Origin: Eledone cirrhosa
Lineage: Eukaryota
Assembly (NCBI GenBank): GCA_964016885.1
Contig: OZ024765.1
Span: 14,136,001-14,200,000 of the forward strand
Direction: 5' to 3'
Length of the DNA: 64,000 nt
Below, one piece after another: positions 11,620-64,000 of the stretch. The position numbers and the translations under genes were made by a program. Each line of letters opens with the position of its first letter. The first letter of the stretch is position 1. Below the pieces are notes generated by a model. The model ran no database searches, was not told the DNA's origin, and was given only the letters and a program-made list of their open reading frames with translations.

Positions 11620-11663
<44 letters not shown>
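11620..11663. repeat. (TA)n microsatellite at the left edge of the macrosatellite
   Basis: About 22 uninterrupted TA repeats immediately before the homology to the repeat unit begins. Confidence 0.95.
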
Positions 11664-11664
<1 letters not shown>

Positions 11665-12774
11665 CTGCTTATTAACTCTTTCCCGAAACATTTATTTCTT
11701 CAAAATAAGGTAAGACATCTCGAAAAATATTATAAGGTGTTTCAATAATTATTCCGTTTCAGTCAATTTCTCATTTCAGCTTTCTTTAGAAATGTCATGG
11801 CGTTGAAGATACATATATTTGTTCTTCTCATAGTAATTAGTTTGTTTCAAAATTGTTCGTATTGTTTCCATGTTTAGTGTCACAAACTATCTATCGTTAA
11901 TTCAAGATTTTGCTCTAATGTAATAAATGTTACTTTTAAAAGACTGAAGCTCTCAATTTTTTCTTTTTCTTGTATATTGATATCTAAAGAATGGCAACTG
12001 TGTGTGTTATGTGATAGGAGAAAAAAAACAACGGCCTTCTTCCATCGCTATAGAAGGCTAACTGACAATGTCGTTCGTAGGAATGACAAGTACTCGGCAA
12101 CAGTGAGCATCACATATTTAGTGATGGTCACCTCTTACTGCCTTTTATATACCATGTTAACTGGAAAGACTTGCCAAGTATGGATACACTCTCTCCTTAT
12201 CAATATTGCCCGAGTCCGAGGACATTTTCTCCCTGGTTAAGGAATGAGATAAAATATTAGGGATCAATCTCTAGCAATAATTAAATTAAATTATATTTAA
12301 CCAAAACTGTTATGTCGTGGTTGTTGCTATATTTTATAGTCGTGGTTTCAATGTTTAACAGGGGTTGTAGAATTAGATTTATCTAATTATTATAAAACAA
12401 AACAGATTTATATATTGTCGCCGTTGTACGTTAAAATCGCATATATATTTATATACACACCAAGGATGGAGGGACGACGGAATTGAAAACCATTATTGCT
12501 GAGTACATCACGGCAAGATCTAATACACACACACACACTCTCCCGTATATATTTAATAATCAGCTATGACCATAAAGAAGGTCGTTGTAGGATCTAATGA
12601 ACCCGAAAGAAAGTGAAAATATATTTTATGAAAGCCCCAGAAGAATAAATGTAAACATTGACCCGATTATAGTAGAAATAAGAATGAGAAAGCCATGAAC
12701 GCCAGCACATCTATTTTGCTTTGAAATTGAAAGTAGGTTTATAAATATTAATTTTTTCTTATGTCCTTGTATCT

Positions 12775-12847
12775 GTTTCGTTGGCCTAATGGTAGGTGTT
12801 AGAGACTATGTAGACACTGATGTGGTGTTCAATCTCAGTCCGAATCT
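12775..12847 (+). pseudogene. tRNA-like cassette 1 (degenerate tRNA / SINE-head-like Pol III promoter)
   Basis: A box TGGCCTAATGG, B-box-like TGTTCAATCTC, tRNA length, upstream TTTATAAATA, downstream T5. Stems pair poorly. The four-cassette cluster recurs at 17364-18062, 21928-22626, 26505-27202, 31061-31759, 35633-36331, 40224-40922, 44801-45499, 49384-50082, 53962-54660, 58540-59238 and 63113-63811. Confidence 0.6.
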
Positions 12848-12910
12848 GTACTATATATTTTTAAATTTAAATTTTTCTCTAGCAAAGTAAAAAATGAAAT
12901 TATTATCTAT

Positions 12911-12983
12911 AGACTTTGACTGAGATCGAAACCCCGAGCAGGTTCTCCACCGTCTCTAATACCTACCATTAGGCCACGGAGAC
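12911..12983 (-). pseudogene. tRNA-like cassette 2
   Basis: Minus strand GTCTCCGTGGCCTAATGGTAGGTATTAGAGACGGTGGAGAACCTGCTCGGGGTTTCGATCTCAGTCAAAGTCT. It has an A box and a B-like box but no canonical cloverleaf, and is convergent with cassette 1. Confidence 0.6.
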
Positions 12984-13064
12984 AGATATAAAAACAGTGT
13001 GAAAATTAATATTTATAAAGTTACTTTTTTATTTTTGTTTTATACTATAAAAAAATATAATACG

Positions 13065-13137
13065 ACACACTGCCAGTGATTGAACCCCGGACCTGGACCT
13101 CCACCGGCTCTTATACTTACCACTAGGCTAAAGTGAC
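13065..13137 (-). pseudogene. tRNA-like cassette 3
   Basis: Minus strand GTCACTTTAGCCTAGTGGTAAGTATAAGAGCCGGTGGAGGTCCAGGTCCGGGGTTCAATCACTGGCAGTGTGT. A box TAGCCTAGTGG, B box GGTTCAATC, followed by T6. Confidence 0.65.
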
Positions 13138-13186
13138 GGTTACAGACACTTACTGAAAATTGATATTTATAAACCTACTTTTTCAT

Positions 13187-13361
13187 TACTAGAAAAAACC
13201 GGAAGTGGAGATAATTGAAAAACATCTTCTTTTTCTTCCTCTGATTTTTTTTTATCCAAAATTTGGATTTAAGTCAGAGACGAGTTATCGTTCGTGGCAA
13301 AAATCAGAGGAAGAAAAAGAAAAAGTTTTTCAATTTTCTCCACTTCCGGTTTTTTCTAGTA
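13187..13361. repeat. Hairpin with ~63-bp arms, each carrying ACCGGAAGTG (present in every unit)
   Basis: tactagaaaaaaccggaagtggagataattgaaaaac...ctctgattttt / aaaaatcagagg...ttctccacttccggttttttctagta with a ~48-nt loop. Confidence 0.92.
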
Positions 13362-13401
13362 TAGGTAAGTAAATATTAATTTTCAAAAAATTTTTCTAAC
13401 C

Positions 13402-13474
13402 GTCCCTGTGGCCTAATGGTAAGTACTAGAGACGGTGGAGATACTGATTTAGGGTTCGATTTCCGTTAGGTTCT
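13402..13474 (+). pseudogene. tRNA-like cassette 4
   Basis: GTCCCTGTGGCCTAATGGTAAGTACTAGAGACGGTGGAGATACTGATTTAGGGTTCGATTTCCGTTAGGTTCT. A box TGGCCTAATGG (as in tRNA-Arg), B box GGTTCGATTTC, acceptor stem only 5/7 paired, anticodon stem unpaired, T6 downstream. Confidence 0.7.
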
Positions 13475-13636
13475 ATACTAATAACTGCGTATTTTTTGCT
13501 TTTATTAAGTAAGATTTGAACTAATAATGCTGTACTTTGTAGTAATGTCCCATATTATATTCAAGATATTTTAATTAAAATTTGTTTTTTTTATAAAAGA
13601 AAGAACAAAAAACCTTATTGAAATTAAGAAATGAAT

Positions 13637-13825
13637 TTTATTCAGTAAAGTTGTTTTTATTTTGTATTCACTTCATTAACTGCTGAATACGTCTTTTGTT
13701 TTTGATTCCTTCTAACCATCGTTTACTGCAAATGGTGGCTGCAACGAACCTGGATTATTACCAAGTTTCACTGGATGATTGTATTATTTTGTTGTCAGTG
13801 GACATCTGGACATCTATCTAAATAC
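13637..13825 (-). other. Putative terminal exon, paralog A (repeated in each unit)
   Basis: Minus-strand acceptor cttgtgtttattccAG|GTATTTAGATAGATGTCCAGATGTCCACTGA (YLDRCPDVH*). AATAAA at 13637-13642 and 13656-13661. Homologous to 15601-15766. Confidence 0.4.
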
Positions 13826-14312
13826 CTGGAATAAACACAAGGTGTGTGTTTTACGTAACATTTCATTTTAATGTCTGATGTTCCTGTATATCACATTTAA
13901 AATGTAACCAATAAACAAGACAGGGACGTTACATCAAAAGAAACCACACAGACGAGGTATGAATAATGTAAAATTCATTTTAACAAACTATAAACGATGT
14001 TTAAAGAGAGACAAACATTAAAAAAAAGGATTTCAAACAAACACGTAAACACAAAGACAATTACAGCCATAATCTAATATCTGAAGATCAACATTTTTCA
14101 CGATAGAAATAAAACTAAATATGTAAAGCTTAGTGGCCCCTGATTTACTTGCTTTTAATTTCATTTTGATAAACTGTATTCTGTAGACATATATTTATGA
14201 TTTTAATGATGAAATTTCCTCTTGTCTTTAAAAGATTATTACTTATAAAAAATTATAATAGTTACCTCCTCCTCTGGATTAATATATAGCATCATTCGAG
14301 GTAGCTTACCCC

Positions 14313-14630
14313 CAGGGGTTCCTCAACTGGGCGATTTCAGCTGTTGGGTAGGCGATGAGCAGCTGAACAGAAAATTGAGGGCCATTGGAAACTTTGGTGG
14401 CCGATGTAGAATTTTGAGATTTAAGAAGGTATGCTACCCGAAAACCTATTCAAGGAATATATGCAAAGAACCCGAATAAAAATCAGGAAGCTAATTGGGA
14501 AAATTGAACCAGGAACAAACATTTACGAAACATATTTGGTATACTTTGGAATATTTACTATACAGGTGGCTGGTGGAACATTTTTTCACGTGAATGTGGG
14601 TAATGACGCCAAAATATTTGGCAACCCTTG
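14313..14630. mobile_element. hAT (Buster/Charlie-type) MITE, ~318 bp, one per repeat unit
   Basis: The ends CAGGGGTTCCTCAA ... TTTGGCAACCCTTG are imperfect hAT-type TIRs. The flanks GCTTACCC / GCTTACAC form a 7/8 TSD with central TA; the boundary is uncertain by 1 nt. There is an internal hairpin at 14321-14380. Confidence 0.72.
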
Positions 14631-15457
14631 GCTTACACCTTACTAAATGTTCTGGAGACAAGCCTCATAGTTATATATCATAGTTCTTCAATCCTTCATC
14701 TTCCACCATTGGTGAAGTATTTCGATTTGATATGGCGATCGCAGAGTTAGATTTAGGACGTGGTGGCGTTCATGGGTTTCTTAGTGTTGTTACTAGAAAG
14801 GGTCGACTCTGTCTTTCACACTTCAGGTTTTTTCATGAATTAAATATCCATTTTCTTTCTGATCGGTCTAACAATGATTTCAACCTACAATGACTCCGTC
14901 TGTAATAATGTTCTCTTATTTGAAATATGTCATACCTAACTCCCGTGTCTGTGTGTGTTAAAAATATTCCAACTTAGAGCGACGTTCCCGTAAATTGTTT
15001 AGCCTGAGTCCTATATATAGATAATGTGTAATATTTGAACCTTCATTGAGGGTCTTTGCCGTAATTTCCCGTAACTCCGACTAGAAGTCATTATGTAGTT
15101 TTTTCGTCCGTTAAAAATAATGATTAAAACAATTCTATATCCACAGTTATATACACCTCTTCATCACATATTATATTATTTACACCAATAACTACATTAT
15201 ATCCTTAAATATGACACGAAGATATATAATTTGTAAATAAAAGATAAAATATTAAAACCTCAATTTTTAAATAATTTTACCCCACATTTATGTTCTCAGT
15301 GTTTAGATAAATCCATAATTTTATGATTTTGGAGCAGATAACATAGTACCAGTCATGTACTGGGATCAATTTAACGGATTGGTTCCTCCCCGCAAATTAC
15401 TTGACTTTTGCCTAAGTAAGACATACTCACAGAATGTAACGATGTATATGTATGAAT

Positions 15458-15477
15458 CTATATATATAATAATATAT

Positions 15478-15510
<33 letters not shown>
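15458..15510. repeat. (AT)n microsatellite, length-variable among units
   Basis: The tract length differs between copies (short near 29187, long near 24611), which shifts the spurious 61-71 aa ORFs. Confidence 0.9.
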
Positions 15511-15512
<2 letters not shown>

Positions 15513-15600
15513 TATGTATATATTTTATGTTTACAATAAAAATAGACAAACAATTTAATGATAATATGAAATGAAATTATTATTATTTATTAATAATATT

Positions 15601-15766
15601 TTTATTGTTTTCACTGCATTAACTTCTGAGTGTGACTTTATTTTTCTTACTATTTTCTACTGTAAATGGCGGCTTAATTGGTTTATTACTAACGTTTACT
15701 GGATTGTGGTGTTTCTTTATTGTTTTATATTTCAATCAGTGGACATCAGGATAGCTTTCTATATAC
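15601..15766 (-). other. Putative terminal exon, paralog B (repeated in each unit)
   Basis: Minus-strand acceptor ctctttacatttatcccAG|GTATATAGAAAGCTATCCTGATGTCCACTGA (YIESYPDVH*). AATAAA at 15601-15606. Confidence 0.4.
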
Positions 15767-15984
15767 CTGGGATAAATGTAAAGAGTACTGACTTTCATCT
15801 GCAGTTGAATGGTGATGTCTTCTTATATTTTCATTTACTTCTGCAATACTGTATATTGTAGTCTTTTCATTATTTTAAATATTTCTATCATGTCACTCGT
15901 TTGATATATCTCCCCGAAAGATGTAGTTATTCAGGGCTTTACATTGGAATAGTGTACTACTATTTAAATATTAGTCCTTTACAT

Positions 15985-16285
15985 ATATATTTCTATCATG
16001 TCCCCCCACCCTCTTAGATTTATCTCCTCTAAATTTGCAATCCCTAAAGTTTAACATCTTTCTTCAGAAGACATATTTCTTAATAATTCTGGTGTTTTCT
16101 GTTTTGTTCTTCTCTGGATTCCTTCAATAGCTTCTCCGTGCCCCAAAACAATATTCTAGGTCGTATCACACATATCATTCAACTAGTATTTTAGACCTCT
16201 CGACATTTAGCTAGGCAAAGGAATGTTTTATTATTCCTATCATCTGAATTCCTTTTTTTTCTTCAACATGTTTAGCCATCTTTAA
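15985..16285 (-). mobile_element. Decayed CR1-clade LINE ORF2 3' fragment (one per unit)
   Basis: The minus strand, read through stops and frameshifts, gives KMAKHVEEKKGIQMIGIIKHSF...DLEYC...IEGIQRRTKQKTPELLRNMSSEERC*TLGIANLEEINLRGWGDMIEIY. This matches the CR1 post-RT motif series LG.IKR.F / LEYC / E..QRRATK..P.L...SYEER...LG...LE..R.RGDMIE.YK. Confidence 0.8.
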
Positions 16286-16726
16286 AATCATATTCATACA
16301 TATTCCCAATTCCTCGTGGAGGGGTATAAGAGACATGTATAAATATAGCTGCATATTACTACAAAATAACTTGAACCATATGGCGAAACATTTTGTAAAG
16401 TATCTCTGTAACTATTCTCATTTCGATTTTCTGTAGAATGTATTGACGTTTAAGATAGAGACAATTGCCCTTCTTCTAATAATCTCTTTGTCCATTCCAT
16501 GTTTAGTATCACAAAATATTGTTAATGCAAGATTTTGCTCTAATGTAATAAATGTTACTTTTAAAAGACCGAAGTTCTCAATTTTCTTCTTTCTCTTGTA
16601 TATTGATATCTAAAGGATGACAAATGTATGAATTATGTGATAGGGAGGAAAAAAGCCACGACCTTTTTCTCTCGTTACAGAGGGCTAACTGAGAACGTCT
16701 TTCGCAGGAGTGACTAGTACTACTGC

Positions 16727-16736
16727 CTTTTATATA
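16727..16736 (-). promoter_or_regulatory. Candidate TATA box (TATATAAAAG), also at 12142-12151
   Basis: A consensus TATA conserved between the diverged flank copy and all units, pointing toward the putative exon B. No transcript evidence. Confidence 0.3.
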
Positions 16737-19700
16737 CCGTGACAACTGGAAAGACGTGACAAATAAGGATACACTCTGCTCTCCTTATCAACATTGTCCG
16801 AGTCTGAGGACCTTTCCTCCCTGGTTAAGGAGTGAGATAAAATATTAAGGATCAATCTCTAGCAATAATTTCATTAAATCATATTTAACCAGAGACTGTT
16901 ATGTCGTGGTTGTTGTTATATTTTATAGTCGTGGTTTCAATGTTTAACAGGGGTTGTAGAATTAGATTTATCTAATTATTATAAAACAAAACAGATTTAT
17001 ATATTGTCGCCGTTGTACGTTAAAATCGCATATATATTTATATACACACCAAGGATGGAGGGACGACGGAATTGAAAACCATTATTGCTGAGTACATCAC
17101 GGCAAGATCTAATATACACACACACACTCTCCCGTATATATTTAATAATCAGCTATGACCATAAAGAAGGTCGTTGTAGGATCTAATGAACCCGAAAGAA
17201 AGTGAAAATATATTTTATGAAAGCCCCAGAAGAATAAATGTAAACATTGACCCGATTATAGTAGAAATAAGAATGAGAAAGCCATGAACGCCAGCACATC
17301 TATTTTGCTTTGAAATTGAAAGTAGGTTTATAAATATTAATTTTTTCTTATGTTCTTGTATCTGTTTCGTTGGCCTAATGGTAGGTGTTAGAGACTATGT
17401 AGACACTGATGTGGTGTTCAATCTCAGTCCGAATCTGTACTATATATTTTTAAATTTAAATTTTTCTCTAGCAAAGTAAAAAATGAAATTATTATCTATA
17501 GACTTTGACTGAGATCGAAACCCCGAGCAGGTTCTCCACCGTCTCTAATACCTACCATTAGGCCACGGAGACAGATATAAAAACAGTGTGAAAATTAATA
17601 TTTATAAAGTTACTTTTTTATTTTTGTTTTATACTATAAAAAATATAATACGACACATTGCCAGTGATTGAACCCCGGACCTGGACCTCCATCGGCTCTT
17701 ATACTTACCACTAGGCTGAAGGGACGGTTACAGAAACTTACTGAAAATTGATATTTATAAACCTACTTTTTCATTACTAGAAAAAACCGGAAGTGGAGAT
17801 AATTGAAAAACATCTTCTTTTTCTTCCTCTGATTTTTTTTTATCCAAAATTTGGATTTAAGTCAGAGACGAGTTATCGTTCGTGGCAAAAATCAGAGGAA
17901 GAAAAAGAAAAAGTTTTTCAATTTTCTCCACTTCCGGTTTTTTCTAGTATAGGTAAGTAAATATTAATTTTCAAAAAATTTTTCTAACCGTCCCTGTGGC
18001 CTAATGGTAAGTACTAGAGACGGTGGAGATCCTGATTTAGGGTTCGATTTCCGTTAGGTTCTATACTAATAACTGCGTATTTTTTGCTTTTATTAAGTAA
18101 GATTTGAACTAATAATGCTGTACTTTGTAGTAATGTCCCATATTATATTCAAGATATTTTAATTAAAATTTGTTTTTTTTATAAAAGAAAGAACAAAAAA
18201 CCTTATTGAAATTAAGAAATGAATTTTATTCAGTAAAGTTGTTTTTATTTTGTATTCACTTCATTAACTGCTGAATACGTCTTTTGTTTTTGATTCCTTC
18301 TAACCATCGTTTACTGCACATGGTGGCTGCAACGAACCTGGATTATTACCAAGTTTCACTGGATGATTGTATTATTTTGTTGTCAGTGGACATCTGGACA
18401 TCTATCTAAATACCTGGAATAAACACAAGGTGTGTGTTTTACGTAACATTTCATTTTAATGTCTGATGTTCCTGTATATCACATTTAAAATGTAACCAAT
18501 AAACAAGACAGGGACGCTACATCAAAAGAAACCACACAGACGAGGTATGAATAATGTAAAATTCATTTTAACAAACTATAAACGATGTTTAAAGAGAGAC
18601 AAACATTAAAAAAAAGGATTTCAAACAAACACGTAAACACAAAGACAATTACAGCCATAATCTAATATCTGAAGATCAACATTTTTCACGATAGAAATAA
18701 AACTAAATATGTAAAGCTTAGTGGCCCCTGATTTACTTGCTTTTAATTTCATTTTGATAAACTGTATTCTGTAGACATATATTTATGATTTTAATGATGA
18801 AATTTCCTCTTGTCTTTAAAAGATTATTACTTATAAAAAATTATAATAGTTACCTCCTCCTCTGGATTAATAAATAGCATCATTCGAGGTAGCTTACCCC
18901 TAGGGGTTCCTCAACTGGGCGATTTCAGCTGTTGGGTAGGCGATGAGCAGCTGAACAGAAAATTGAGGGCCATTGGAAACTTTGGTGGCCGATGTAGAAT
19001 TTTGAGATTTAAGAAGGTATGCTACCCGAAAACCTATTCAAGGAATATATGCAAAGAACCCGAATAAAAATCAGGAAGCTAATTGGGAAAATTGAACCAG
19101 GAACAAACATTTACGAAACATATTTGGTATACTTTGGAATATTTACTATACAGGTGGCTGGTGGAACATTTTTTCACGTGAATGTGGGTAATGACGCCAA
19201 AATATTTGGCAACCCTTGGCTTACACCTTACTAAATGTTCTGGAGACAAGCCTCATAGTTATATATCATAGTTCTTCAATCCTTCATCTTCCACCATTGG
19301 TGAAGTATTTCGATTTGATATGACGATCGCAGAGTTAGATTTAGGACGTGGTGGCGTTCATGGGTTTCTTAGTGTTGTTACTAGAAAGGGTCGACTCTGT
19401 CTTTCACACTTCAGGTTTTTTCATGAATTAAATATCCATTTTCTTTCTGATCGGTCTAACAATGATTTCAACCTACTCCGTCTGTAATAATGTTCTCTTA
19501 TTTGAAATATGTCATACCTAACTCCCGTGTCTGTGTGTGTGAAAAATATTCCAACTTAGAGCGACGTTCCCGTAAATTGTTTAGCCTGAGTCCTATATAT
19601 AGATAATGTGTAATATTTGAACCTTCATTGAGGGTCTTTGCCGTAATTTCCCGTAACTCCGACTAGAAGTCATTATGTAGTTTTTTCGTCCGTTAAAAAT

Positions 19701-20042
19701 AATGATTAAAACAATTCTATATCCACAGTTATATACACCGCTTCATCACATATTATATTATTTACACCAATAACTACATTATATCCTTAAATATGACACC
19801 AAGATATATAATTTGTAAATAAAAGATAAAATATTAAAACCTCAATTTTTAAATAATTTTACCCCACATTTATGTTCTCAGATAAATCCATAATTTTATG
19901 ATTTTGGAGCAGATAACATAGTACCAGTCATGTACTGGGATCAATTTAACGGATTGGTTCCTCCCCGCAAATTACTTGACTTTTGCCTAAGTAAGACATA
20001 CTCACAGAATGTAACGATGTATATGTATGAATCTATATATAT

Positions 20043-20078
<36 letters not shown>

Positions 20079-23000
20079 GTATATATTTTATGTTTACAAT
20101 AAAAATAGACAAACAATTTAATGATAATATGAAATGAAATTATTATTATTTATTAATAATATTTTTATTGTTTTCACTGCATTAACTTCTGAGTGTGACT
20201 TTGTTTTTCTTACTATTTTCTACTGTAAATGGCGGCTTAATTGGTTTATTACTAACGTTTACTGGATTGTGGTGTTTCTTTATTGTTTTATATTTCAATC
20301 AGTGGACATCAGGATAGCTTTCTATATACCTGGGATAAATGTAAAGAGTACTGACTTTCATCTGCAGTTGAATGGTGATGTCTTCTTATATTTTCATTTA
20401 CTTCTGCAATACTGTATATTGTAGTCTTTTCATTATTTTAAATATTTCTATCATGTCACTCGTTTGATATATCTCCCCGAATGATGTAGTTATTCAGGGC
20501 TTTACATTGGAATAGTGTACTACTATTTAAATATTAGTCCTTTAAATATATATTTCTATCATGTCCCCCCCCCCCTCTTAGATTTGTCTCCTCTAAATTT
20601 GCAATCCCTAAAGTTTAACATCTTTCTTCAGAAGACATATTTCTTAATAATTCTGGTGTTTTCTGTTTTGTTCTTCTCTGGATTCCTTCAATAGCTTCTC
20701 CGTGCCCCAAAACAATATTCTAGGTCGTATCACACATATCATTCAACTAGTGTTTTAGACCTCTCGACATTTAGCTAGGCAAAGGAATGTTTTATTATTC
20801 CTATCATCTGAATTCCTTTTTCTTCTTCAACATGTTTAGCCATCTTTAAAATCATATTCATACATATTCCCAATTCCTCGTGGAGGGTTATAAGAGACAT
20901 GTATAAATATAGCTGCATATTACTACAAAATAACTTGAACCATATGGCGAAACATTTTGTAAAGTATCTCTGTAATTATTCTCATTTCGATTTTCTGTAG
21001 AATATATTGACGTTTAAGATAGAGACAATTGCCCTTCTTCTAATAATCTCTTTGTCCATTCCATGTTTAGTATCACAAAATATTGTTAATGCAAGATTTT
21101 GCTCTAATGTAATAAATGTTACTTTTAAAAGACCGAAGTTCTCAATTTTCTTCTTTCTCTTGTATATTGATATCTAAAGGATGACAAATGTATGAATTAT
21201 GTGACAGGGAGGAAAAAAGCCACGACCTTTTTCTCTCGTTACAGAAGGCTAACTGAGAACGTCTTTCGCAGGAGTGACTAGTACTACTGCCTTTTATATA
21301 CCGTGACAACTGGAAAGACGTGACAAATAAGGATACACTCTGCTCTCCTTATCAACATTGTCCGAGTCTGAGGACCTTTCCTCCCTGGTTAAGGAGTGAG
21401 ATAAAATATTAGGGATCAATCTCTAGCAATAATTTCATTAAATCATATTTAACCAGAGACTGTTATGTCGTGGTTGTTGTTATATTTTATAGTCGTGGTT
21501 TCAATGTTTAACAGGGGTTGTAGAATTAGATTTATCTAATTATTATAAAACAAAACAGATTTATATATTGTCGCCGTTGTACGTTAAAATCGCATATATA
21601 TTTATATACACACCAAGGATGGAGGGACGACGGAATTGAAAACCATTATTGCTGAGTACATCACGGCAAGATCTAATACACACACACACACTCTCCCGTA
21701 TATATTTAATAATCAGCTATGACCATAAAGAAGGTCGTTGTAGGATCTAATGAACCCGAAAGAAAGTGAAAATATATTTTATGAAAGCCCCAGAAGAATA
21801 AATGTAAACATTGACCCGATTATAGTAGAAATAAGAATGAGAAGACCATGAACGCCAGCACATCTATTTTGCTTTGAAATTGAAAGTAGGTTTATAAATA
21901 TTAATTTTTTCTTATGTTCTTGTATCTGTTTCGTTGGCCTAATGGTAGGTGTTAGAGACTATGTAGACACTGATGTGGTGTTCAATCTCAGTCCGAATCT
22001 GTACTATATATTTTTAAATTTAAATTTTTCTCTAGCAAAGTAAAAAATGAAATTATTATCTATAGACTTTGACTGAGATCGAAACCCCGAGCAGGTTCTC
22101 CACCGTCTCTAATACCTACCATTAGGCCACGGAGACAGATATAAAAACAGTGTGAAAATTAATATTTATAAAGTTACTTTTTTATTTTTGTTTTATACTA
22201 TAAAAAATATAATACGACACACTGCCAGTGATTGAACCCCGGACCTGGACCTCCACCGGCTCTTATACTTACCACTAGGCTAAAGTGACGGTTACAGACA
22301 CTTACTGAAAATTGATATTTATAAACCTACTTTTTCATTACTAGAAAAAACCGGAAGTGGAGATAATTGAAAAACATCTTCTTTTTCTTCCTCTGATTTT
22401 TTTTTATCCAAAATTTGGATTTAAGTCAGAGACGAGTTATCGTTCGTGGCAAAAATCAGAGGAAGAAAAAGAAAAAGTTTTTCAATTTTCTCCACTTCCG
22501 GTTTTTTCTAGTATAGGTAAGTAAATATTAATTTTCAAACATTTTTTCTAACCGTCCCTGTGGCCTAATGGTAAGCACTAGAGACGGTGGAGATCCTGAT
22601 TTAGGGTTCGATTTCCGTTAGGTTCTATACTAATAACTGCGTATTTTTTGCTTTTATTAAGTAAGATTTGAACTAATAATGCTGTACTTTGTAGTAATGT
22701 CCCATATTATATTCAAGATATTTTAATTAAAATTTGTTTTTTTTATAAAAGAAAGAACAAAAAACCTTATTGAAATTAAGAAATGAATTTTATTCAGTAA
22801 AGTTGTTTTTATTTTGTATTCACTTCATTAACTGCTGAATACGTCTTTTGTTTTTAATTCCTTCTAACCATCGTTTACTGCAAATGGTGGCTGCAACGAA
22901 CCTGGATTATTACCAAGTTTCACTGGATGATTGTATTATTTTATTGTCAGTGGACATCTGGACATCTATCTAAATACCTGGAATAAACACAAGGTGTGTG

Positions 23001-24610
23001 TTTTACGTAACATTTCATTTTAATGTCTGATGTTCCTGTATATCACATTTAAAATGTAACCAATAAACAAGACAGGGACGCTACATCAAAAGAAACCACA
23101 CAGACGAGGTATGAATAATGTAAAATTCATTTTAACAAACTATAAACGATGTTTAAAGAGAGACAAACATTAAAAAAAAGGATTTCAAACAAACACGTAA
23201 ACACAAAGACAATTACAGCCATAATCTAATATCTGAAGATCAACATTTTTCACGATAGAAATAAAACTAAATATGTAAAGCTTAGTGGCCCCTGATTTAC
23301 TTGCTTTTAATTTCATTTTGATAAACTGTATTCTGTAGACATATATTTATGATTTTAATGATGAAATTTCCTCTTGTCTTTAAAAGATTATTACTTATAA
23401 AAAATTATAATAGTTACCTCCTCCTCTGGATTAATATATAGCATCATTCGAGGTAGCTTACCCCCAGGGGTTCCTCAACTGGGCGATTTCAGCTGTTGGG
23501 TAGGCGATGAGCAGCTGAACAGAAAATTGAGGGCCATTGGAAACTTTGGTGGCCGATGTAGAATTTTGAGATTTAAGAAGGTATGCTACCCGAAAACCTA
23601 TTCAAGGAATATATGCAAAGAACCCGAATAAAAATCAGGAAGCTAATTGGGAAAATTGAACCAGGAACAAACATTTACGAAACATATTTGGTATACTTTG
23701 GAATATTTACTATACAGGTGGCTGGTGGAACATTTTTTCACGTGAATGTGGGTAATGACGCCAAAATATTTGGCAACCCTTGGCTTACACCTTACTAAAT
23801 GTTCTGGAGACAAGCCTCATAGTTATATATCATAGTTCTTCAATCCTTCATCTTCCACCATTGGTGAAGTATTTCGATTTGATATGGCGATCGCAGAGTT
23901 AGATTTAGGACGTGGTGGCGTTCATGGGTTTCTTAGTGTTGTTACTAGAAAGGGTCGACTCTGTCTTTCACACTTCAGGTTTTTTCATGAATTAAATATC
24001 CATTTTCTTTCTGATCGGTCTAACAATGATTTCAACCTACAATGACTCCGTCTGTAATAATGTTCTCTTATTTGAAATATGTCATACCTAACTCCCGTGT
24101 CTGTGTGTGTGAAAAATATTCCAACTTAGAGCGACGTTCCCGTAAATTGTTTAGCCTGAGTCCTATATATAGATAATGTGTAATATTTGAACCTTCATTG
24201 AGGGTCTTTGCCGTAATTTCCCGTAACTCCGACTAGAAGTCATTATGTAGTTTTTTCGTCCGTTAAAAATAATGATTAAAACAATTCTATATCCACAGTT
24301 ATATACACCTCTTCATCACATATTATATTATTTACACCAATAACTACATTATATCCTTAAATATGACACCAAGATATATAATTTGTAAATAAAAGATAAA
24401 ATATTAAAACCTCAATTTTTAAATAATTTTACCCCACATTTATGTTCTCAGTGTTTAGATAAATCCATAATTTTATGATTTTGGAGCAGATAACATAGTA
24501 CCAGTCATGTACTGGGATCAATTTAACGGATTGGTTCCTCCCCGCAAATTACTTGACTTTTGCCTAAGTAAGACATACTCACAGAATGTAACGATGTATA
24601 TGTATGAATC

Positions 24611-53500: not shown

Positions 53501-56500
53501 GTCGTGGTTGTTGTTATATTTTATAGTCGTGGTTTCAATGTTTAACAGGGGTTGTAGAATTAGATTTATCTAATTATTATAAAACAAAACAGATTTATAT
53601 ATTGTCGCCGTTGTACGTTAAAATCGCATATATATTTATATACACACCAAGGATGGAGGGACGACGGAATTGAAAACCATTATTGCTGAGTACATCACGG
53701 CAAGATCTAATACACACACACACACTCTCCCGTATATATTTAATAATCAGCTATGACCATAAAGAAGGTCGTTGTAGGATCTAATGAACCCGAAAGAAAG
53801 TGAAAATATATTTTATGAAAGCCCCAGAAGAATAAATGTAAACATTGACCCGATTATAGTAGAAATAAGAATGAGAAAGCCATGAACGCCAGCACATCTA
53901 TTTTGCTTTGAAATTGAAAGTAGGTTTATAAATATTAATTTTTTCTTATGTTCTTGTATCTGTTTCGTTGGCCTAATGGTAGGTGTTAGAGACTATGTAG
54001 ACACTGATGTGGTGTTCAATCTCAGTCCGAATCTGTACTATATATTTTTAAATTTAAATTTTTCTCTAGCAAAGTAAAAAATGAAATTATTATCTATAGA
54101 CTTTGACTGAGATCGAAACCCCGAGCAGGTTCTCCACCGTCTCTAATACCTACCATTAGGCCACGGAGACAGATATAAAAACAGTGTGAAAATTAATATT
54201 TATAAAGTTACTTTTTTATTTTTGTTTTATACTATAAAAAATATAATACGACACATTGCCAGTGATTGAACCCCGGACCTGGACCTCCACCGGCTCTTAT
54301 ACTTACCACTAGGCTAAAGGGACGGTTACAGAAACTTACTGAAAATTGATATTTATAAACCTACTTTTTCATTACTAGAAAAAACCGGAAGTGGAGATAA
54401 TTGAAAAACATCTTCTTTTTCTTCCTCTGATTTTTTTTTATCCAAAATTTGGATTTAAGTCAGAGACGAGTTATCGTTCGTGGCAAAAATCAGAGGAAGA
54501 AAAAGAAAAAGTTTTTCAATTTTCTCCACTTCCGGTTTTTTCTAGTATAGGTAAGTAAATATTAATTTTCAAACATTTTTTCTAACCGTCCCTGTGGCCT
54601 AATGGTAAGCACTAGAGACGGTGGAGATCCTGATTTAGGGTTCGATTTCCGTTAGGTTCTATACTAATAACTGCGTATTTTTTGCTTTTATTAAGTAAGA
54701 TTTGAACTAATAATGCTGTACTTTGTAGTAATGTCCCATATTATATTCAACATATTTTAATTAAAATTTGTTTTTTTTATAAAAGAAAGAACAAAAAACC
54801 TTATTGAAATTAAGAAATGAATTTTATTCAGTAAAGTTGTTTTTATTTTGTATTCACTTCATTAACTGCTGAATACGTCTTTTGTTTTTGTTTTTGTTTC
54901 CTTCTAACCATTGTTTACTGCACATGGTGGCTGCAACGAACCTGGATTATTACCAAGTTTCACTGGATGATTGTATTATTTTGTTGTCAGTGGACATCTG
55001 GACATCTATCTAAATACCTGGAATAAACACAAGGTGTGTGTTTTACGTAACATTTCATTTTAATGTCTGATGTTCCTGTATATCACATTTAAAATGTAAC
55101 CAATAAACAAGACAGGGACGCTACATCAAAAGAAACCACACAGACGAGGTATGAATAATGTAAAATTCATTTTAACAAACTATAAACGATGTTTAAAGAG
55201 AGACAAACATTAAAAAAAAGGATTTCAAACAAACACGTAAACACAAAGACAATTACAGCCATAATCTAATATCTGAAGATCAACATTTTTCACGATAGAA
55301 ATAAAACTAAATATGTAAAGCTTAGTGGCCCCTGATTTACTTGCTTTTAATTTCATTTTGATAAACTGTATTCTGTAGACATATATTTATGATTTTAATG
55401 ATGAAATTTCCTCTTGTCTTTAAAAGATTATTACTTATAAAAAATTATAATAGTTACCTCCTCCTCTGGATTAATATATAGCATCATTCGAGGTAGCTTA
55501 CCCCCAGGGGTTCCTCAACTGGGCGATTTCAGCTGTTGGGTAGGCGATGAGCAGCTGAACAGAAAATTGAGGGCCATTGGAAACTTTGGTGGCCGATGTA
55601 GAATTTTGAGATTTAAGAAGGTATGCTACCCGAAAACCTATTCAAGGAATATATGCAAAGAACCCGAATAAAAATCAGGAAGCTAATTGGGAAAATTGAA
55701 CCAGGAACAAACATTTACGAAACATATTTGGTATACTTTGGAATATTTACTATACAGGTGGCTGGTGGAACATTTTTTCACGTGAATGTGGGTAATGACG
55801 CCAAAATATTTGGCAACCCTTGGCTTACACCTTACTAAATGTTCTGGAGACAAGCCTCATAGTTATATATCATAGTTCTTCAATCCTTCATCTTCCACCA
55901 TTGGTGAAGTATTTCGATTTGATATGGCGATCGCCGAGTTAGATTTAGGACGTGGTGGCGTTCATGGGTTTCTTAGTGTTGTTACTAGAAAGGGTCGACT
56001 CTGTCTTTCACATTTCAGGTTTTTTCATGAATTAAATATCCATTTTCTTTCTGATCGGTCTAACAATGATTTCAACCTACAATGACTCCGTCTGTAATAA
56101 TGTTCTCTTATTTGAAATATGTCATACCTAACTGCCGTGTCTGTGTGTGTGAAAAATATTCCAACTTAGAGCGACGTTCCCGTAAATTGTTTAGCCTGAG
56201 TCCTATATATAGATAATGTGTAATATTTGAACCTTCATTGAGGGTCTTTGCCGTAATTTCCCGTAACTCCGACTAGAAGTCATTATGTAGTTTTTTCGTC
56301 CGTTAAAAATAATGATTAAAACAATTCTATATCCACAGTTATATACACCTCTTCATCACATATTATATTATTTACACCAATAACTACATTATATCCTTAA
56401 ATATGACACCAAGATATATAATTTGTAAATAAAAGATAAAATATTAAAACCTCAATTTTTAAATAATTTTACCCCACATTTATGTTCTCAGTGTTTAGAT

Positions 56501-59500
56501 AAATCCATAATTTTATGATTTTGGAGCAGATAACATAGTACCAGTCATGTACTGGGATCAATTTAACGGATTGGTTCCTCCCCGCAAATTACTTGACTTT
56601 TGCCTAAGTAAGACATACTCACAGAATGTAACGATGTATATGTATGAATCTATATATATAATAATATATATATATATATATATATTTATGTATATATTTT
56701 ATGTTTACAATAAAAATAGACAAACAATTTAATGATAATATGAAATGAAATTATTATTATTTATTAATAATATTTTTATTGTTTCCACTGCATTAACTTC
56801 TGAGTGTGACTTTGTTTTTCTTACTATTTTCTACTGTAAATGGCGGCTTAATTGGTTTATTACTAACGTTTACTGGATTGTGGTGTTTCTTTATTGTTTT
56901 ATATTTCAATCAGTGGACATCAGGATAGCTTTCTATATACCTGGGATAAATGTAAAGAGTACTGACTTTCATCTGCAGTTCAATGGTGATGTCTTCTTAT
57001 ATTTTCATTTACTTCTGCAATACTGTATATTGTAGTCTTTTCATTATCTTAAATATTTCTATCATGTCACTCGTTTGATATATCTCCCCGAAAGATGTAG
57101 TTATTCAGGGCTTTACATTGGAATAGTGTACTACTATTTAAATATTAGTTCTTTAAATATATATTTCTATCATGTCCCCCCCCCCCCTCTTAGATTTGTC
57201 TCCTCTAAATTTGCAATCCCTAAAGTTTAACATCTTTCTTCAGAAGACATATTTCTTAATAATTCTGGTGTTTTCTGTTTTGTTCTTCTCTGGATTCCTT
57301 CAATAGCTTCTCCGTGCCCCAAAACAATATTCTAGGTCGTATCACACATATCATTCAACTAGTGTTTTAGACCTCTCGACATTTAGCTAGGCAAAGGAAT
57401 GTTTTATTATTCCTATCATCTGAATTCCTTTTTTTTCTTCAACATGTTTAGCCATCTTTAAAATCATATTCATACATATTCACAATTCCTCGTGGAGGGG
57501 TATAAGAGACATGTATAAATATAGCTGCATATTACTACAAAATAACTTGAACCATATGGCGAAACATTTTGTAAAGTATCTCTGTAATTATTCTCATTTC
57601 GATTTTCTGTAGAATGTATTGACGTTTAAGATAGAGACAATTGCCCTTCTTCTAATAATCTCTTTGTCCATTCCATGTTTAGCATCACAAAATATTGTTA
57701 ATGCAAGATTTTGCTCTAATGTAATAAATGTTACTTTTAAAAGACCGAAGTTCTCAATTTTCTTCTTTCTCTTGTATATTGATATCTAAAGGATGACAAA
57801 TGTATGAATTATGTGATAGGGAGGAAAAAAGCCACGACCTTCTTCTCTCGTTACAGAAGGCTAACTGAGAACGTCTTTCGCAGGAGTGACTAGTACTACT
57901 GCCTTTTATATACCGTGACAACTGGAAAGACGTGACAAATAAGGATACACTCTGCTCTCCTTATCAACATTGTCCGAGTCTGAGGACCTTTCCTCCCTGG
58001 TTAAGGAGTGAGATAAAATATTAGGGATCAATCTCTAGCAATAATTTCATTAAATCATATTTAACCAGAGACTGTTATGTCGTGGTTGTTGTTATATTTT
58101 ATAGTCGTGGTTTCAATGTTTAACAGGGGTTGTAGAATTAGATTTATCTAATTATTATAAAACAAAACAGATTTATATATTGTCGCCGTTGTACGTTAAA
58201 ATCGCATATATATTTATATACACACCAAGGATGGAGGGACGACGGAATTGAAAACCATTATTGCTGAGTACATCACGGCAAGATCTAATACACACACACA
58301 CACTCTCCCGTATATATTTAATAATCAGCTATGACCATAAAGAAGGTCGTTGTAGGATCTAATGAACCCGAAAGAAAGTGAAAATATATTTTATGAAAGC
58401 CCCAGAAGAATAAATGTAAACATTGACCCGATTATAGTAGAAATAAGAATGAGAAAGCCATGAACGCCAGCACATCTATTTTGCTTTGAAATTGAAAGTA
58501 GGTTTATAAATATTAATTTTTTCTTATGTTCTTGTATCTGTTTCGTTGGCCTAATGGTAGGTGTTAGAGACTATGTAGACACTGATGTGGTGTTCAATCT
58601 CAGTCCGAATCTGTACTATATATTTTTAAATTTAAATTTTTCTCTAGCAAAGTAAAAAATGAAATTATTATCTATAGACTTTGACTGAGATCGAAACCCC
58701 GAGCAGGTTCTCCACCGTCTCTAATACCTACCATTAGGCCACGGAGACAGATATAAAAACAGTGTGAAAATTAATATTTATAAAGTTACTTTTTTATTTT
58801 TGTTTTATACTATAAAAAATATAATACGACACACTGCAAGTGATTGAACCCCGGACCTGGACCTCCACCGGCTCTTATACTTACCACTAGGCTAAAGTGA
58901 CGGTTACAGACACTTACTGAAAATTGATATTTATAAACCTACTTTTTCATTACTAGAAAAAACAGGAAGTGGAGATAATTGAAAAACATCTTCTTTTTCT
59001 TCCTCTGATTTTTTTTTATCCAAAATTTGGATTTAAGTCAGAGACGAGTTATCGTTCGTGGCAAAAATCAGAAGAAGAAAAAGAAAAAGTTTTTCAATTT
59101 TCTCCACTTCCGGTTTTTTCTAGTATAGGTAAGTAAATATTAATTTTCAAAAAATTTTTCTAACCGTCCCTGTGGCCTAATGGTAAGTACTAGAGACGGT
59201 GGAGATCCTGATTTAGGGTTCGATTTCCGTTAGGTTCTATACTAATAACTGCGTATTTTTTGCTTTTATTAAGTAAGATTTGAACTAATAATGCTGTACT
59301 TTGTAGTAATGTCCCATATTATATTCAAGATATTTTAATTAAAATTTGTTTTTTTTATAAAAGAAAGAACAAAAAACCTTATTGAAATTAAGAAATGAAT
59401 TTTATTCAGTAAAGTTGTTTTTATTTTGTATTCACTTCATTAACTGCTGAATACGTCTTTTGTTTTTGATTCCTTCTAACCATCGTTTACTGCAAATGGT

Positions 59501-62500
59501 GGCTGCAACGAACCTGGATTATTACCAAGTTTCACTGGATGATTGTATTATTTTGTTGTCAGTGGACATCTGGACATCTATCTAAATACCTGGAATAAAC
59601 ACAAGGTGTGTGTTTTACGTAACATTTCATTTTAATGTCTGATGTTCCTGTATATCACATTTAAAATGTAACCAATAAACAAGACAGGGACGCTACATCA
59701 AAAGAAACCACACAGACGAGGTATGAATAATGTAAAATTCATTTTAACAAACTATAAACGATGTTTAAAGAGAGACAAACATTAAAAAAAAGGATTTCAA
59801 ACAAACACGTAAACACAAAGACAATTACAGCCATAATCTAATATCTGAAGATCAACATTTTTCACGATTGAAATAAAACTAAATATGTAAAGCTTAGTGG
59901 CCCCTGATTTACTTGCTTTTAATTTCATTTTGATAAACTGTATTCTGTAGACATATATTTATGATTTTAATGATGAAATTTCCTCTTGTCTTTAAAAGAT
60001 TATTACTTATAAAAAATTATAATAGTTACCTCCTCCTCTGGATTAATATATAGCATCATTCGAGGTAGCTTACCCCCAGGGGTTCCTCAACTGGGCGATT
60101 TCAGCTGTTGGGTGGGCGATGAGCAGCTGAACAGAAAATTGAGGGCCATTGGAAACTTTGGTGGCCGATGTAGAATTTTGAGATTTAAGAAGGTATGCTA
60201 CCCGAAAACCTATTCAAGGAATATATGCAAAGAACCCGAATAAAAATCAGGAAGCTAATTGGGAAAATTGAACCAGGAACAAACATTTACGAAACATATT
60301 TGGTATACTTTGGAATATTTACTATACAGGTGGCTGGTGGAACATTTTTCACGTGAATGTGGGTAATGACGCCAAAATATTTGGCAACCCTTGGCTTACA
60401 CCTTACTAAATGTTCTGGAGACAAGCCTCTTAGTTATATATCATAGTTCTTCAATTCTTCATCTTCCACCATTGATGAAGTATTTCGATTTGATATGACG
60501 ATCGCAGAGTTAGATTTAGGACGTGGTGGCGTTCATGGGTTTCTTAGTGTTGTTACTAGAAAGGGTCGACTCTGTCTTTCACACTTCAGGTTTTTTCATG
60601 AATTAAATATCCATTTTCTTTCTGATCGGTCTAACAATGATTTCAACCTACAATGACTCCGTCTGTAATAATGTTCTCTTATTTGAAATATGTCATACCT
60701 AACTCCCGTGTCTGTGTGTGTGAAAAATATTCCAACTTAGAGCGACGTTCCCGTAAATTGTTTAGCCTGAGTCCTATATATAGATAATGTGTAATATTTG
60801 AACCTTCATTGAGGGTCTTTGCCGTAATTTCCCGAAACTCCGACTAGAAGTCATTATGTAGTTTTTTCGTCCGTTAAAAATAATGATTAAAACAATTCTA
60901 TATACACAGTTATATACACCTCTTCATCACATATTATATTATTTACACCAATAACTACATTATATCCTTAAATATGACACGAAGATATATAATTTGTAAA
61001 TAAAAGATAAAATATTAAAACCTCAATTTTTAAATAATTTTACCCCACATTTATGTTCTCAGTGTTTAGATAAATCCATAATTTTATGATTTTGGAGCAG
61101 ATAACATAGTACCAGTCATGTACTGGGATCAATTTAACGGATTGGTTCCTCCCCGCAAATTACTTGACTTTTGCCTAAGTAAGACATACTCACAGAATGT
61201 AACGATGTATATGTATGAATCTATATATATAATAATATATATATATATATATATATATATTTATGTATATATTTTATGTTTACAATAAAAATAGACAAAC
61301 AATTTAATGATAATATGAAATGAAATTATTATTATTTATTAATAATATTTTTATTGTTTTCACTGCATTAACTTCTGAGTGTGACTTTGTTTTTCTTACT
61401 ATTTTCTACTGTAAATGGCGGCTTAATTGGTTTATTACTAACGTTTACTGGATTGCGGTGTTTCTTTATTGTTTTATATTTCAATCAGTGGACATCAGGA
61501 TAGCTTTCTATATACCTGGGGTAAATGTAAAGAGTACTGACTTTCATCTGCAGTTCAATGGTGATGTCTTCTTATATTTTCATTTACATCTGCAATTCTG
61601 TATATTGTAGTCTTTTCATTATTTTAAATATTTCTATCATGTCACTCGTTTGATATATCTCCCCGAAAGATGTAGTTATTCAGGGCTTTACATTGGAATA
61701 GTGTACTACTATTTAAATATTAGTCCTTTACATATATATTTCTATCATGTCCCCCCACCCTCTTAGAATTATCTCCTCTAAATTTGCAATCCCTAAAGTT
61801 TAACATCTTTCTTCAGAAGACATATTTCTTAATAATTCTGGTGTTTTCTGTTTTGTTCTTCTCTGGATTCCTTCAATAGCTTCTCCGTGCCCCAAAACAA
61901 TATTCTAGGTCGTATCACACATATCATTCAACTAGTGTTTTAGACCTCTCGACATTTAGCTAGGCAAAGGAATGTTTTATTATTCCTATCATCTGAATTC
62001 CTTTTTTTTCTTCAACATGTTTAGCCATCTTTAAAATCATATTCATACATATTCACAATTCCTCGTGGAGGGAGATAAGAGACATGTATATATATAGCTG
62101 CATATTACTACAAAATAACTTGAACCATATGGCGAAACATTTTGTAAAGTATCTCTGTAATTATTCTCATTTCGATTATCTGTAGAATGTATTGACGTTT
62201 AAGATAGAGACAATTGCCCTTCTTCTAATAATCTCTTTGTCCATTCCATGTTTAGCATCACAAAATATTGTTAATGCAAGATTTTGCTCTAATGTAATAA
62301 ATGTTACTTTTAAAAGACCGAAGTTCTCAATTTTCTTCTTTCTCTTGTATATTGATATCTAAAGGATGACAAATGTATGAATTATGTGATAGGGAGGAAA
62401 AAAGCCACGACCTTCTTCTCTCGTTAGAGAAGGCTAACTGAGAACGTCTTTCGCAGGAGTGACTAGTACTACTGCCTTTTATATACCGTGACAACTGGAA

Positions 62501-64000
62501 AGACGTGACAAATAAGGATACACTCTGCTCTCCTTATCAACATTGTCCGAGTCTGAGGACCTTTCCTCCCTGGTTAAGGAGTGAGATAAAATATTAGGGA
62601 TCAATCTCTAGCAATAATTTCATTAAATCATATTTAACCAGAGACTGTTATGTCGTGGTTGTTGTTATATTTTATAGTCGTGGTTTCAATGTTTAACAGG
62701 GGTTGTAGAATTAGATTTATCTAATTATTATAAAACAAAACAGATTTATATATTGTCGCCGTTGTACGTTAAAATCGCATATATATTTATATACACACCA
62801 AGGATGGAGGGACGACGGAATTGAAAACCATTATTGCTGAGTACATCACGGCAAGATCTAATACACACACACACACTCTCCCGTATATATTTAATAATCA
62901 GCTATGACCATAAAGAAGGTCGTTGTAGGATCTAATGAACCCGAAAGAAAGTGAAAATATATTTTATGAAAGCCCCAGAAGAATAAATGTAAACATTGAC
63001 CCGATTATAGTAGAAATAAGAATGAGAAAGCCATGAACGCCAGCACATCTATTTTGCTTTGAAATTGAAAGTAGGTTTATAAATATTAATTTTTTCTTAT
63101 GTTCTTGTATCTGTTTCGTTGGCCTAATGGTAGGTGTTAGAGACTATGTAGACACTGATGTGGTGTTCAATCTCAGTCCGAATCTGTACTATATATTTTT
63201 AAATTTAAATTTTTCTCTAGCAAAGTAAAAAATGAAATTATTATCTATAGACTTTGACTGAGATCGAAACCCCGAGCAGGTTCTCCACCGTCTCTAATAC
63301 CTACCATTAGGCCACGGAGACAGATATAAAAACAGTGTGAAAATTAATATTTATAAAGTTACTTTTTTATTTTTGTTTTATACTATAAAAAATATAATAC
63401 GACACATTGCCAGTGATTGAACCCCGGACCTGGACCTCCACCGGCTCTTATACTTACCACTAGGCTAAAGGGACGGTTACAGAAACTTACTGAAAATTGA
63501 TATTTATAAACCTACTTTTTCATTACTAGAAAAAACCGGAAGTGGAGATAATTGAAAAACATCTTCTTTTTCTTCCTCTGATTTTTTTTTATCCAAAATT
63601 TGGATTTAAGTCAGAGACGAGTTATCGTTCGTGGCAAAAATCAGAGGAAGAAAAAGAAAAAGTTTTTCAATTTTCTCCACTTCCGGTTTTTTCTAGTATA
63701 GGTAAGTAAATATTAATTTTCAAACATTTTTTCTAACCGTCCCTGTGGCCTAATGGTAAGCACTAGAGACGGTGGAGATCCTGATTTAGGGTTCGATTTC
63801 CGTTAGGTTCTATACTAATAACTGCGTATTTTTTGCTTTTATTAAGTAAGATTTGAACTAATAATGCTGTACTTTGTAGTAATGTCCCATATTATATTCA
63901 ACATATTTTAATTAAAATTTGTTTTTTTTATAAAAGAAAGAACAAAAAACCTTATTGAAATTAAGAAATGAATTTTATTCAGTAAAGTTGTTTTTATTTT

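Follow-up and report, generated by a model that had tools for sequence, protein, structure and literature searches.

A homogeneous 4.6-kb tandem array of Eledone cirrhosa whose units each contain four cassettes, probably relics of small RNAs of Pol III type

The analysed window, i.e. the whole stretch of 64,000 nucleotides of Eledone cirrhosa contig OZ024765.1 (positions 14,136,001 to 14,200,000, forward strand), possesses a tandem array of multi-kilobase units, and raises the question whether these units carry a functional cargo or turn over as satellite DNA. The array is arranged head to tail, has a GC content of 32% and comprises 11 full units of 4,556-4,589 bp (mean 4,576 bp). Its overall features are:

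11620..11663, no strand: (TA)22 run, marking the left limit of clear homology
11664..12330, no strand: diverged edge copy of the unit-closing segment, ~85% like its counterpart in other units
11664..64000, + strand: tandem array of 11 full ~4,576-bp units plus partial ends, extending beyond the window
21758..21864, + strand: old inverted duplicate (68%) of 23,909-24,011
24611..24664, no strand: (TA)n microsatellite common to all units, variable in length

The array anchor occurs 12 times between 12,340 and 62,678, and the twelfth unit is partial, a 1,323-bp tail ended by the window end. A preliminary description had counted more than 11 near-identical units of ~4.575 kb, which agrees with the 11 full units and the partial twelfth at ~99% identity. 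Pairs of full units (55 pairs) differ by 4-50 substitutions with a mean of 36 (0.79%); 4 sites separate unit 8 from unit 11, and the partial unit 12 equals unit 10 across all ~1,290 columns. Substitutions among units comprise 64 transitions and 59 transversions, with 7-18 private substitutions in each of units 1-5 and 1-5 in each of units 6-11. Exchange between units is indicated by the four-gamete test, which shows 463 incompatible pairs among 1,035 informative pairs of sites. The array is homogeneous; its earlier designation as young holds for the latest homogenisation and is not established for the age of the array as such. In a search of sequencing runs, sampled words of the unit are present with shares of 0.24-0.51 in runs under three organism labels from two studies, one of these labels possibly being the source sample. 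Further runs, left out of account here, reach shares of 0.06-0.11 (three runs) or 0.00 (one run), and no RNA run is among the sequencing runs listed as sharing unit words.

The left edge of the array is graded. Its start had been placed at 11,655, but the homogeneous part starts only near 12,330, where identity to the other units rises from 85% in the edge copy to 98-100%. To the left of the (TA)22 run a weak 30-nt match persists, equalled by 4 of 300 shuffles. Inside the edge copy, 38 of 150 aligned sites differ between 11,664 and 11,870, as compared with 48 of 424 between 11,871 and 12,340 (Fisher p = 9e-5). These two divergence levels (25% and 11%) would be expected from an array of some age whose edge is decaying just as much as from a single crossover. 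The 85% edge copy is likely to reflect the seeding homology, fitting a crossover between old direct copies: the array would probably have been seeded when a LINE-like segment, present in two old copies of the same orientation, underwent unequal crossing-over, and unequal exchange and gene conversion would homogenise its units, more slowly at the edge than inside.

Standard cargo is absent from the array according to our searches. ARAGORN detects no tRNA genes. In the Rfam scan proposed in the preliminary description, run on the whole window, none of 4,227 families reaches its gathering score. With E-values up to 10, Rfam gives only AT-rich hairpin noise far under the gathering scores. Pfam yields nothing significant for 12 read-through frames (six from one unit, six from the edge), with two matches at E 0.14-0.19, and in both databases 5S, snRNA and histone genes are missing from the unit. 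The earlier statement that rRNA, histone and snRNA genes are lacking is supported by these searches, as is the broader view of a homogeneous multi-kb array assembled from old decayed parts. No published account of the array or of its RNA was found in a literature search of partial coverage.

Among the decayed parts, LINE-like sequence and a fold-back element are present in the following positions (given for unit 3, except for the tract and the ORF):

22339..22513, no strand: fold-back MITE-like element with 63-nt arms, 95% complementary
22742..22987, - strand: exA, likely the truncated 3' end of a LINE and paralog of exB
24671..24917, - strand: exB, likely the 3' end of the LINE-like tract
24918..26069, - strand: LINE-like tract (CR1 ORF2-like by its translations), decayed and interrupted by stops and frameshifts
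24712..25002, + strand: hydrophobic ORF of 96 codons, running antisense to exB and open in all 11 units

The fold-back element and the core of the flank palindrome are related. The element had been labelled a hAT MITE; its terminal inverted repeats stand, and the hAT label does not, as none of the 9 end positions examined shows an 8-bp target duplication. The closest, an inner position, agrees in 6 of 8. A flanking repeat of TA or CTAG fits exactly. Old insertions may lose their target duplication.

The LINE-like tract resembles, by eye and in two frames, motifs of CR1 ORF2, most clearly between 24,950 and 25,480 and weakly in the portion common to the edge copy. Protein searches return 3 candidates of which none scored (LINE-like frame), no phmmer match among 1.84 billion proteins for a read-through frame of 353 residues, and 72 candidates without a score (edge segment, longer-protein search); 11 pieces give no significant Pfam match, PDB yields none, and a 34-aa piece has no match in the atlas. 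Of the CR1 fragment noted earlier the resemblance to these motifs remains, while all database searches are blank. exA and exB are 68-76% alike, so the pair of segments formerly described as duplicated and exon-like is real, but it is better read as LINE 3' ends; from their sequence they are most likely two CR1-like LINE 3' ends. By-eye readings of a LINE ORF1, a GPCR remnant at 23,400-24,100 and a signal-peptide exon at the edge found no support and were dropped.

Cassettes resembling tRNA genes, already recognised in the preliminary description, are present four times per unit in the orientation +, -, -, + and are 58-74% alike. In unit 1 they are located as follows:

12732..12862, + strand: cassette t1, its A box at 12,782 preceded by an AT box; B box variant, with a predicted hairpin and a T5 run
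12889..13026, - strand: cassette t2, in tail-to-tail arrangement with t1; A box at 12,976 and a T6 run
13050..13180, - strand: cassette t3, A box at 13,130, T6-7 run, directly neighbouring t2
13359..13497, + strand: cassette t4, in head-to-head arrangement with t3 and separated from it by the fold-back element; A box at 13,409 and a T6 run

The A box, compared with its consensus, is exact in 47 of 48 cassettes and has one change in the remaining one. Across t1-t4 it is invariant in 9 of 11 columns, with both changes at purine positions; the A-to-B spacing is identical, and the common upstream AT box is invariant in 13 of 15 columns. All four B boxes are variant, with a TTCRA core at the same offset and the last C one base late, and two of them have one further change. 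The first T-run after the B box is a T5-6, located 75-83 nt past the A box in all four cassettes, with none earlier in the sequences examined; such a run follows 4% of background start points, a figure to be read in view of the relatedness of the cassettes, which are not independent. Just 5 of 45 columns are invariant in the downstream sequence. About 50 nt of upstream flank are common to the cassettes, which argues for their spread by duplication at the DNA level, since retroposition would not copy this flank; such duplication would be their mode of origin. A model built from the four cassettes recovers these and no others in 1-17,300, where its next match has E 0.44, and the cassette patterns occur neither in metagenome contigs nor in viral contigs (0 in each).

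The cassettes do not form a cloverleaf: the T arm has no more than 3 of 5 pairs, the anticodon arm no more than 4 of 5 and these not at one position, and Rfam at E up to 10 gives no tRNA or Vault match for stretches of 116-471 nt. A cloverleaf placed by hand, in rough register, scores at shuffle level. RNAalifold predicts a consensus hairpin of 13 pairs, four of them compensatory, on the A-box strand, picked from four sequences only; the opposite strand does not form it. In this hairpin 48 of 52 cells are paired and 4 of 13 pairs have double changes, which neutral decay from a perfect hairpin would produce with P 0.0001-0.005 (paired cells) and 0.0006-0.0009 (double changes). Its consensus energy is matched by 1 of 1,000 column shuffles on a 45-nt window that was selected afterwards and by 5-11 of 1,000 on 73 nt, where the count of compensatory pairs is equalled by 36-70 of 1,000 shuffles. 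The control of the tool itself gives 13 of 500, a type of value which according to the tool is not a probability. Folded singly, three of the four cassettes favour a competing 5' hairpin.

Among units, 11 columns of the cassettes vary and t2 of unit 4 has in addition a lesion that includes a 1-nt deletion, versus 7.9 expected, and 4 of 5 variants at paired sites break the pair. They show no sign of constraint within the array today. With at least 48 redundant copies, weak selection per copy could mask a live function. The suggestion of a non-coding RNA cargo gains support from the Pol III-type geometry of promoter and terminator and from the covarying hairpin, but not from any constraint between units. 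Judged from their sequence, the cassettes look tRNA-derived and are likely relics of an unnamed Pol III-type small-RNA family. Selection may have kept the hairpin during the divergence of the four cassettes, which could then have been RNA genes of the host or have supplied the RNA of a selfish element; today the cassettes would be carried along passively. The array as a whole is read as a long-period satellite with exchanging units, in which four likely relic Pol III-type cassettes per unit ride passively. Neutral turnover is the likeliest reading because the cassettes lack constraint among units, and we give it an even chance of being right.

Several other readings bear on the same features. 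An array of active Pol III genes for small RNAs, with predicted hairpin RNAs of 85-100 nt and the array as dosage amplifier in the manner of the hominid snaR genes or the human 1q23.3 tRNA repeat, would account for the conservation of A box, A-to-B spacing, AT box and T-run in all four cassettes, for the covariation on the A-box strand and for the unit words under three organism labels; it is a doubtful possibility in view of undepleted variation in the cassettes, pair-breaking variants at paired sites and a variant B box in every cassette. Rather unlikely, and put forward tentatively, is the related proposal that ~90-nt tRNA-derived Pol III RNAs, with the 3' half refolded into a B-box hairpin, form an undescribed family of four paralogs and the real cargo of the macrosatellite in related, probably octopus, species. 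The length and homogeneity of the array would also suit a structural or silencing function (centromeric, heterochromatic, or as piRNA/endo-siRNA source), and the 95% fold-back together with the convergent cassettes (73% complementary) could yield double-stranded RNA; we regard this as decidedly unlikely, since no tested sequence feature points that way and the array adjoins ordinary repeat-rich DNA.

A concatemer of transposons, be it the product of a Helitron by rolling circle or tandem copies of a TRIM whose LTRs are tRNA-like (Helenus, for instance), would explain the mosaic nature of the unit, and tRNA-like sequences inside elements are known (PMC10886601). It is very unlikely: homology at the left boundary is graded and lacks a sharp terminus, and the cassettes, given their orientations and their similarity of 58-74%, are not paired direct LTRs. 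A scan for Helitron termini, insensitive as it is, returned nothing, including for a flank candidate chosen by eye. That the 96-residue hydrophobic peptide of the + strand is the cargo is more improbable still. Its frame is open in 11 of 11 units, and mismatches between exA and exB are distributed 14/6/22 over its codon positions (p 0.01), with a pN/pS of 0.43; however, a minus-strand frame, which continues the LINE-like tract, gives the same pN/pS (0.46), and in each of the 10 variable codons the encoded amino acid differs. Each unit has 3-4 ORFs of at least 50 aa versus a shuffle mean of 2.9, the longest (96) lying near the shuffle 95th percentile (99). A protein search with the 96 residues gave 8 candidates, none scored, and Pfam and homolog searches are blank; the atlas returns three unnamed matches at 0.79-0.81. 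The ORF is likely not a gene, and the proposed short-peptide cargo is unlikely, as every variable codon of the only long ORF is non-synonymous. Least probable of all is an over-expansion of the assembly: some units are nearly identical (4 differences, and 0 across part of a unit), but all 11 full units are distinct in their private substitutions, their 64:59 ratio of transitions to transversions and their mosaics.

Taken by itself, the array belongs to ordinary satellite biology. Its cassettes, if expressed, would represent a lineage-specific family of structured small RNAs missed by Rfam and tRNA finders and amplified in a snaR-like manner, and their at least 48 copies would give a strong signal. 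If silent, they would record a tRNA-derived Pol III unit that gained a new fold before its decay.

DXZ4, D4Z4 and NBL2 are long-period or transposon-derived satellites. These macrosatellites share with the array multi-kb units, ~99% identity, a decayed mosaic and turnover by exchange; unlike them, the array is not GC-rich (32% GC), and it has no DUX4-like ORF under constraint. Heads of tRNA-derived SINEs and Helenus TRIMs keep A and B boxes and lose the cloverleaf (PMC4758252, PMC10886601), but the cassettes lack a SINE body, tail, target duplication and LTR pair, and share their upstream flank. Vault RNAs, as defined in PMC8824774, are 80-150 nt long and clustered, with an A box, a weak B box with GTTC core and a T-run, all of which the cassettes resemble; the panhandle, however, is absent in the cassette consensus and in 7 of 8 single folds, the post-A-box motif is matched in 2-3 of 8 letters, and Rfam RF00006 gives no match. 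The human tRNA VNTR at 1q23.3 (PMC4041453) contains true tRNA genes in a tandem unit of 4-8 kb. As here, several Pol III-type cassettes lie in otherwise unconserved tandem DNA, whereas the cloverleaf of the present cassettes is broken and neither ARAGORN nor Rfam finds any. The snaR arrays of hominids encode small structured RNAs with A/B-box-like promoters, duplicated tandemly at the DNA level (PMC3045588). They are Alu-derived and expressed, whereas the cassettes have a tRNA-derived look, comprise four types in inverted pairs and are predicted only; both have in common a small-RNA-type ancestor, internal rearrangement and tandem spread.

Self-comparison of the window yields a single period from ~11.7 kb to the window end, and the anchor is found 12 times, delimiting 11 full head-to-tail units, each 4,556-4,589 bp long, with a tail of 1,323 bp after the last. 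Pairs of units differ by 4-50 substitutions (mean 36, i.e. 0.79%), and the 123 substitution columns (64 transitions, 59 transversions) are scattered over the whole unit. The array of more than 11 near-identical ~4.575-kb units in the preliminary description is thus real. Its proposed start at 11655 holds in part: homology is present from 11,664, but the first 0.67 kb (the edge copy, 11,664-12,330) is a diverged version of the unit-closing segment with just 85% overall identity, against 98-100% past 12,330. Divergence within the edge copy is higher in the outer (38 of 150 sites) than in the inner part (48 of 424; p 9e-5). CpG observed/expected is mostly 0.7-0.9 across the window, CpG-type variants comprise 8 of 122 unit variants versus 4% of bases in CpG, and methylation-driven decay is little.

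All four gametes occur at 463 of 1,035 informative site pairs, hence the units are mosaics. Private changes number 7-18 each in units 1-5 and 1-5 each in units 6-11; 4 sites distinguish unit 8 from unit 11, and the partial unit 12 is identical to unit 10 across ~1,290 columns. Exchange among units is ongoing, faster in the interior than at the edge. Mosaicism and private changes count against assembler duplication, and an artefact is the least credible explanation of the array. Word shares of the unit in sequencing runs, one of them possibly from the source sample, are 0.43-0.51 for organism A (four runs, two samples, one study) and, in a second study, 0.43 for organism B and 0.24 for organism C, which suggests that the unit also exists outside this assembly. 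Should the sizes given for these runs (88-1,428 million letters) be those of the raw data, its assembly from so little depth would imply many copies. The supposed youth of the array consequently applies to its homogeneity, which is recent, while the unit itself may be of older origin.

The unit, described here from unit 3, contains besides four tRNA-like cassettes:
~26,070 to 24,680, minus strand: LINE-like tract, translated across frameshifts, clearest at 24,950-25,480
22,742-22,987 and 24,671-24,917, both minus strand: duplicated segments exA and exB
22,339-22,513: fold-back element, 175 bp, flanked by TA or CTAG, kin to the core of a 1.3-kb flank palindrome
remainder, ~2 kb: origin not assignable

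Translation of the LINE-like tract resembles the end of a CR1-type ORF2; none of the databases searched confirms this identity, and the CR1 label is plausible. The upstream part of this tract occurs a second time as the edge copy, which would provide direct homology for a seeding crossover. The pair described as exon-like exists, and its mismatches by codon phase (14, 6, 22; p 0.01) retain a trace of past coding constraint, with two frames equally good (pN/pS 0.43 in the plus, 0.46 in the minus frame). As exB runs straight on from the LINE-like tract and AT-rich tails close both segments, the simplest reading is two LINE 3' ends instead of exons. The putative hAT MITE is MITE-like, but its flanks are without an 8-bp repeat and hAT is not demonstrable.

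Left of the array, a large palindrome (4913-6238, reaching ~3460-7359) has a 1.3-kb core 95.5% self-complementary, sharing motifs with the unit fold-back element, and outer arms 93-95% alike in aligned columns with many indels. A dispersed repeat family (1209-2185, 4168-4611, 6058-6662, 10341-11420; both orientations, 73-91%) fills the flank with nested inverted copies. A second fold-back (7938-8635) is 77% self-complementary and weakly matches the same MITE core at 8450-8498. The GC-rich hairpin at 9365-9395, by eye followed by CTAGT, resembles a Helitron 3' end; a Helitron terminus scan gave no match there. The tRNA-headed SINE-like repeat at ~9780-9940 (minus strand) is presumably an octopus-genome repeat.

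Standard cargo is absent by ARAGORN, Rfam and Pfam, as the preliminary description had proposed. A 96-codon ORF, the plus frame of exB, is open in all 11 units; all 10 variable codons alter the residue, its length is close to the shuffle 95th percentile, protein searches found no relatives, and a peptide cargo is very improbable. In a GC-richer tract (23400-24100, 38-41%) several frames are largely free of stops and two ORFs start with ATG (53-71 codons), with no Pfam match.

The tRNA-like cassettes are confirmed, four per unit (t1-t4, orientation +,-,-,+), 58-74% alike across 106 nt. Each possesses an A box, an indel-free B-box-like core 44-45 nt on, and a first T-run (T5-6) at 75-83 nt, predicting an RNA of ~85-100 nt. 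An AT-rich box ~26-45 nt upstream is common to all four (13 of 15 columns invariant), and this shared flank points to spread by DNA-level duplication rather than retroposition. ARAGORN, Rfam and arm-pairing checks rule out tRNAs, and the vault RNA definition in the available part of PMC8824774 does not apply. Further copies occur neither in the 11.6-kb flank nor in metagenome or viral collections.

From these four sequences only, RNAalifold folds the 3' half into a predicted hairpin of 13 pairs, with the B box inside and four pairs changed on both sides; the two departures from the B-box consensus in t1 and t2 are each offset by a change across the predicted stem. The covariation tool's own control gives 13 of 500 shuffles. 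Consensus energy is matched by 1 of 1,000 column shuffles in a 45-nt window picked afterwards and by 5-11 over 73 nt, the compensatory-pair count by 7-8 and 36-70 per 1,000, respectively. The hairpin strand reaches -10 to -11.5 kcal/mol versus -1 to -3 for the opposite strand. If a perfect hairpin had decayed neutrally, a total of 48 paired cells out of 52 would have P 0.005 or less, a value biased because structure and ancestor both derive from the data. Single-sequence folds of three cassettes favour a competing 5' hairpin; in t1, t2 and t4 a GAGAC(GG) segment pairs with either the 5' or the 3' end, in mutually exclusive folds. Past selection on the hairpin fold is probable. The 12 array copies, compared with one another, give no indication that constraint acts now: variable columns number 11, to which a lesion in t2 of unit 4 with a 1-nt deletion is added, against 7.9 expected, after dropping those of the 28 columns originally counted that the deletion had shifted; 4 of 5 variants at paired sites break the pair, and one A box is altered.

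The likeliest origin, to which we give about even chances, is that two old direct copies of the LINE-like segment underwent unequal crossing-over, duplicating the intervening 4.58 kb; the array would then have been enlarged and homogenised by unequal exchange and conversion, with the cassettes, descended from an older Pol III-type family, as passengers. The data are also compatible with an old array whose edge is decaying, a reading that departs from this crossover origin in age alone. Applying 0.09 per 25 My, as given in the accessible portion of PMC13282606, the units would be ~1 My old, the edge copy 17-43 My and the cassette split at least 45-84 My, if the SINE-like repeat at ~9,780-9,940 is indeed an octopus repeat.

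A live small-RNA array is possible but doubtful, and cassette RNAs that are expressed and conserved are marginally more doubtful. A structural or silencing role is unlikely, and a transposon concatemer more so. Crossover seeding with passenger cassettes has precedent for its debris component: in the portions available, PMC10886601, PMC4758252 and PMC4824008 describe tRNA-like promoters without cloverleaf as common in mobile elements (Helenus TRIMs, mollusc SINE heads), and PMC11121367 a limpet satellite derived from a SINE.

The literature, as partially covered, yielded no description of the array or a cassette RNA. Invertebrate satellites are mostly much shorter, according to the accessible text of PMC13130569. 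In layout the Eledone array is similar to snaR arrays (PMC3045588) and the human 1q23.3 tRNA repeat (PMC4041453), as far as the available parts of these sources describe them, and is a member of neither. It behaves like macrosatellites in both features testable here. As a satellite the array is ordinary, and the predicted four-cassette hairpin family is the aspect deserving follow-up.
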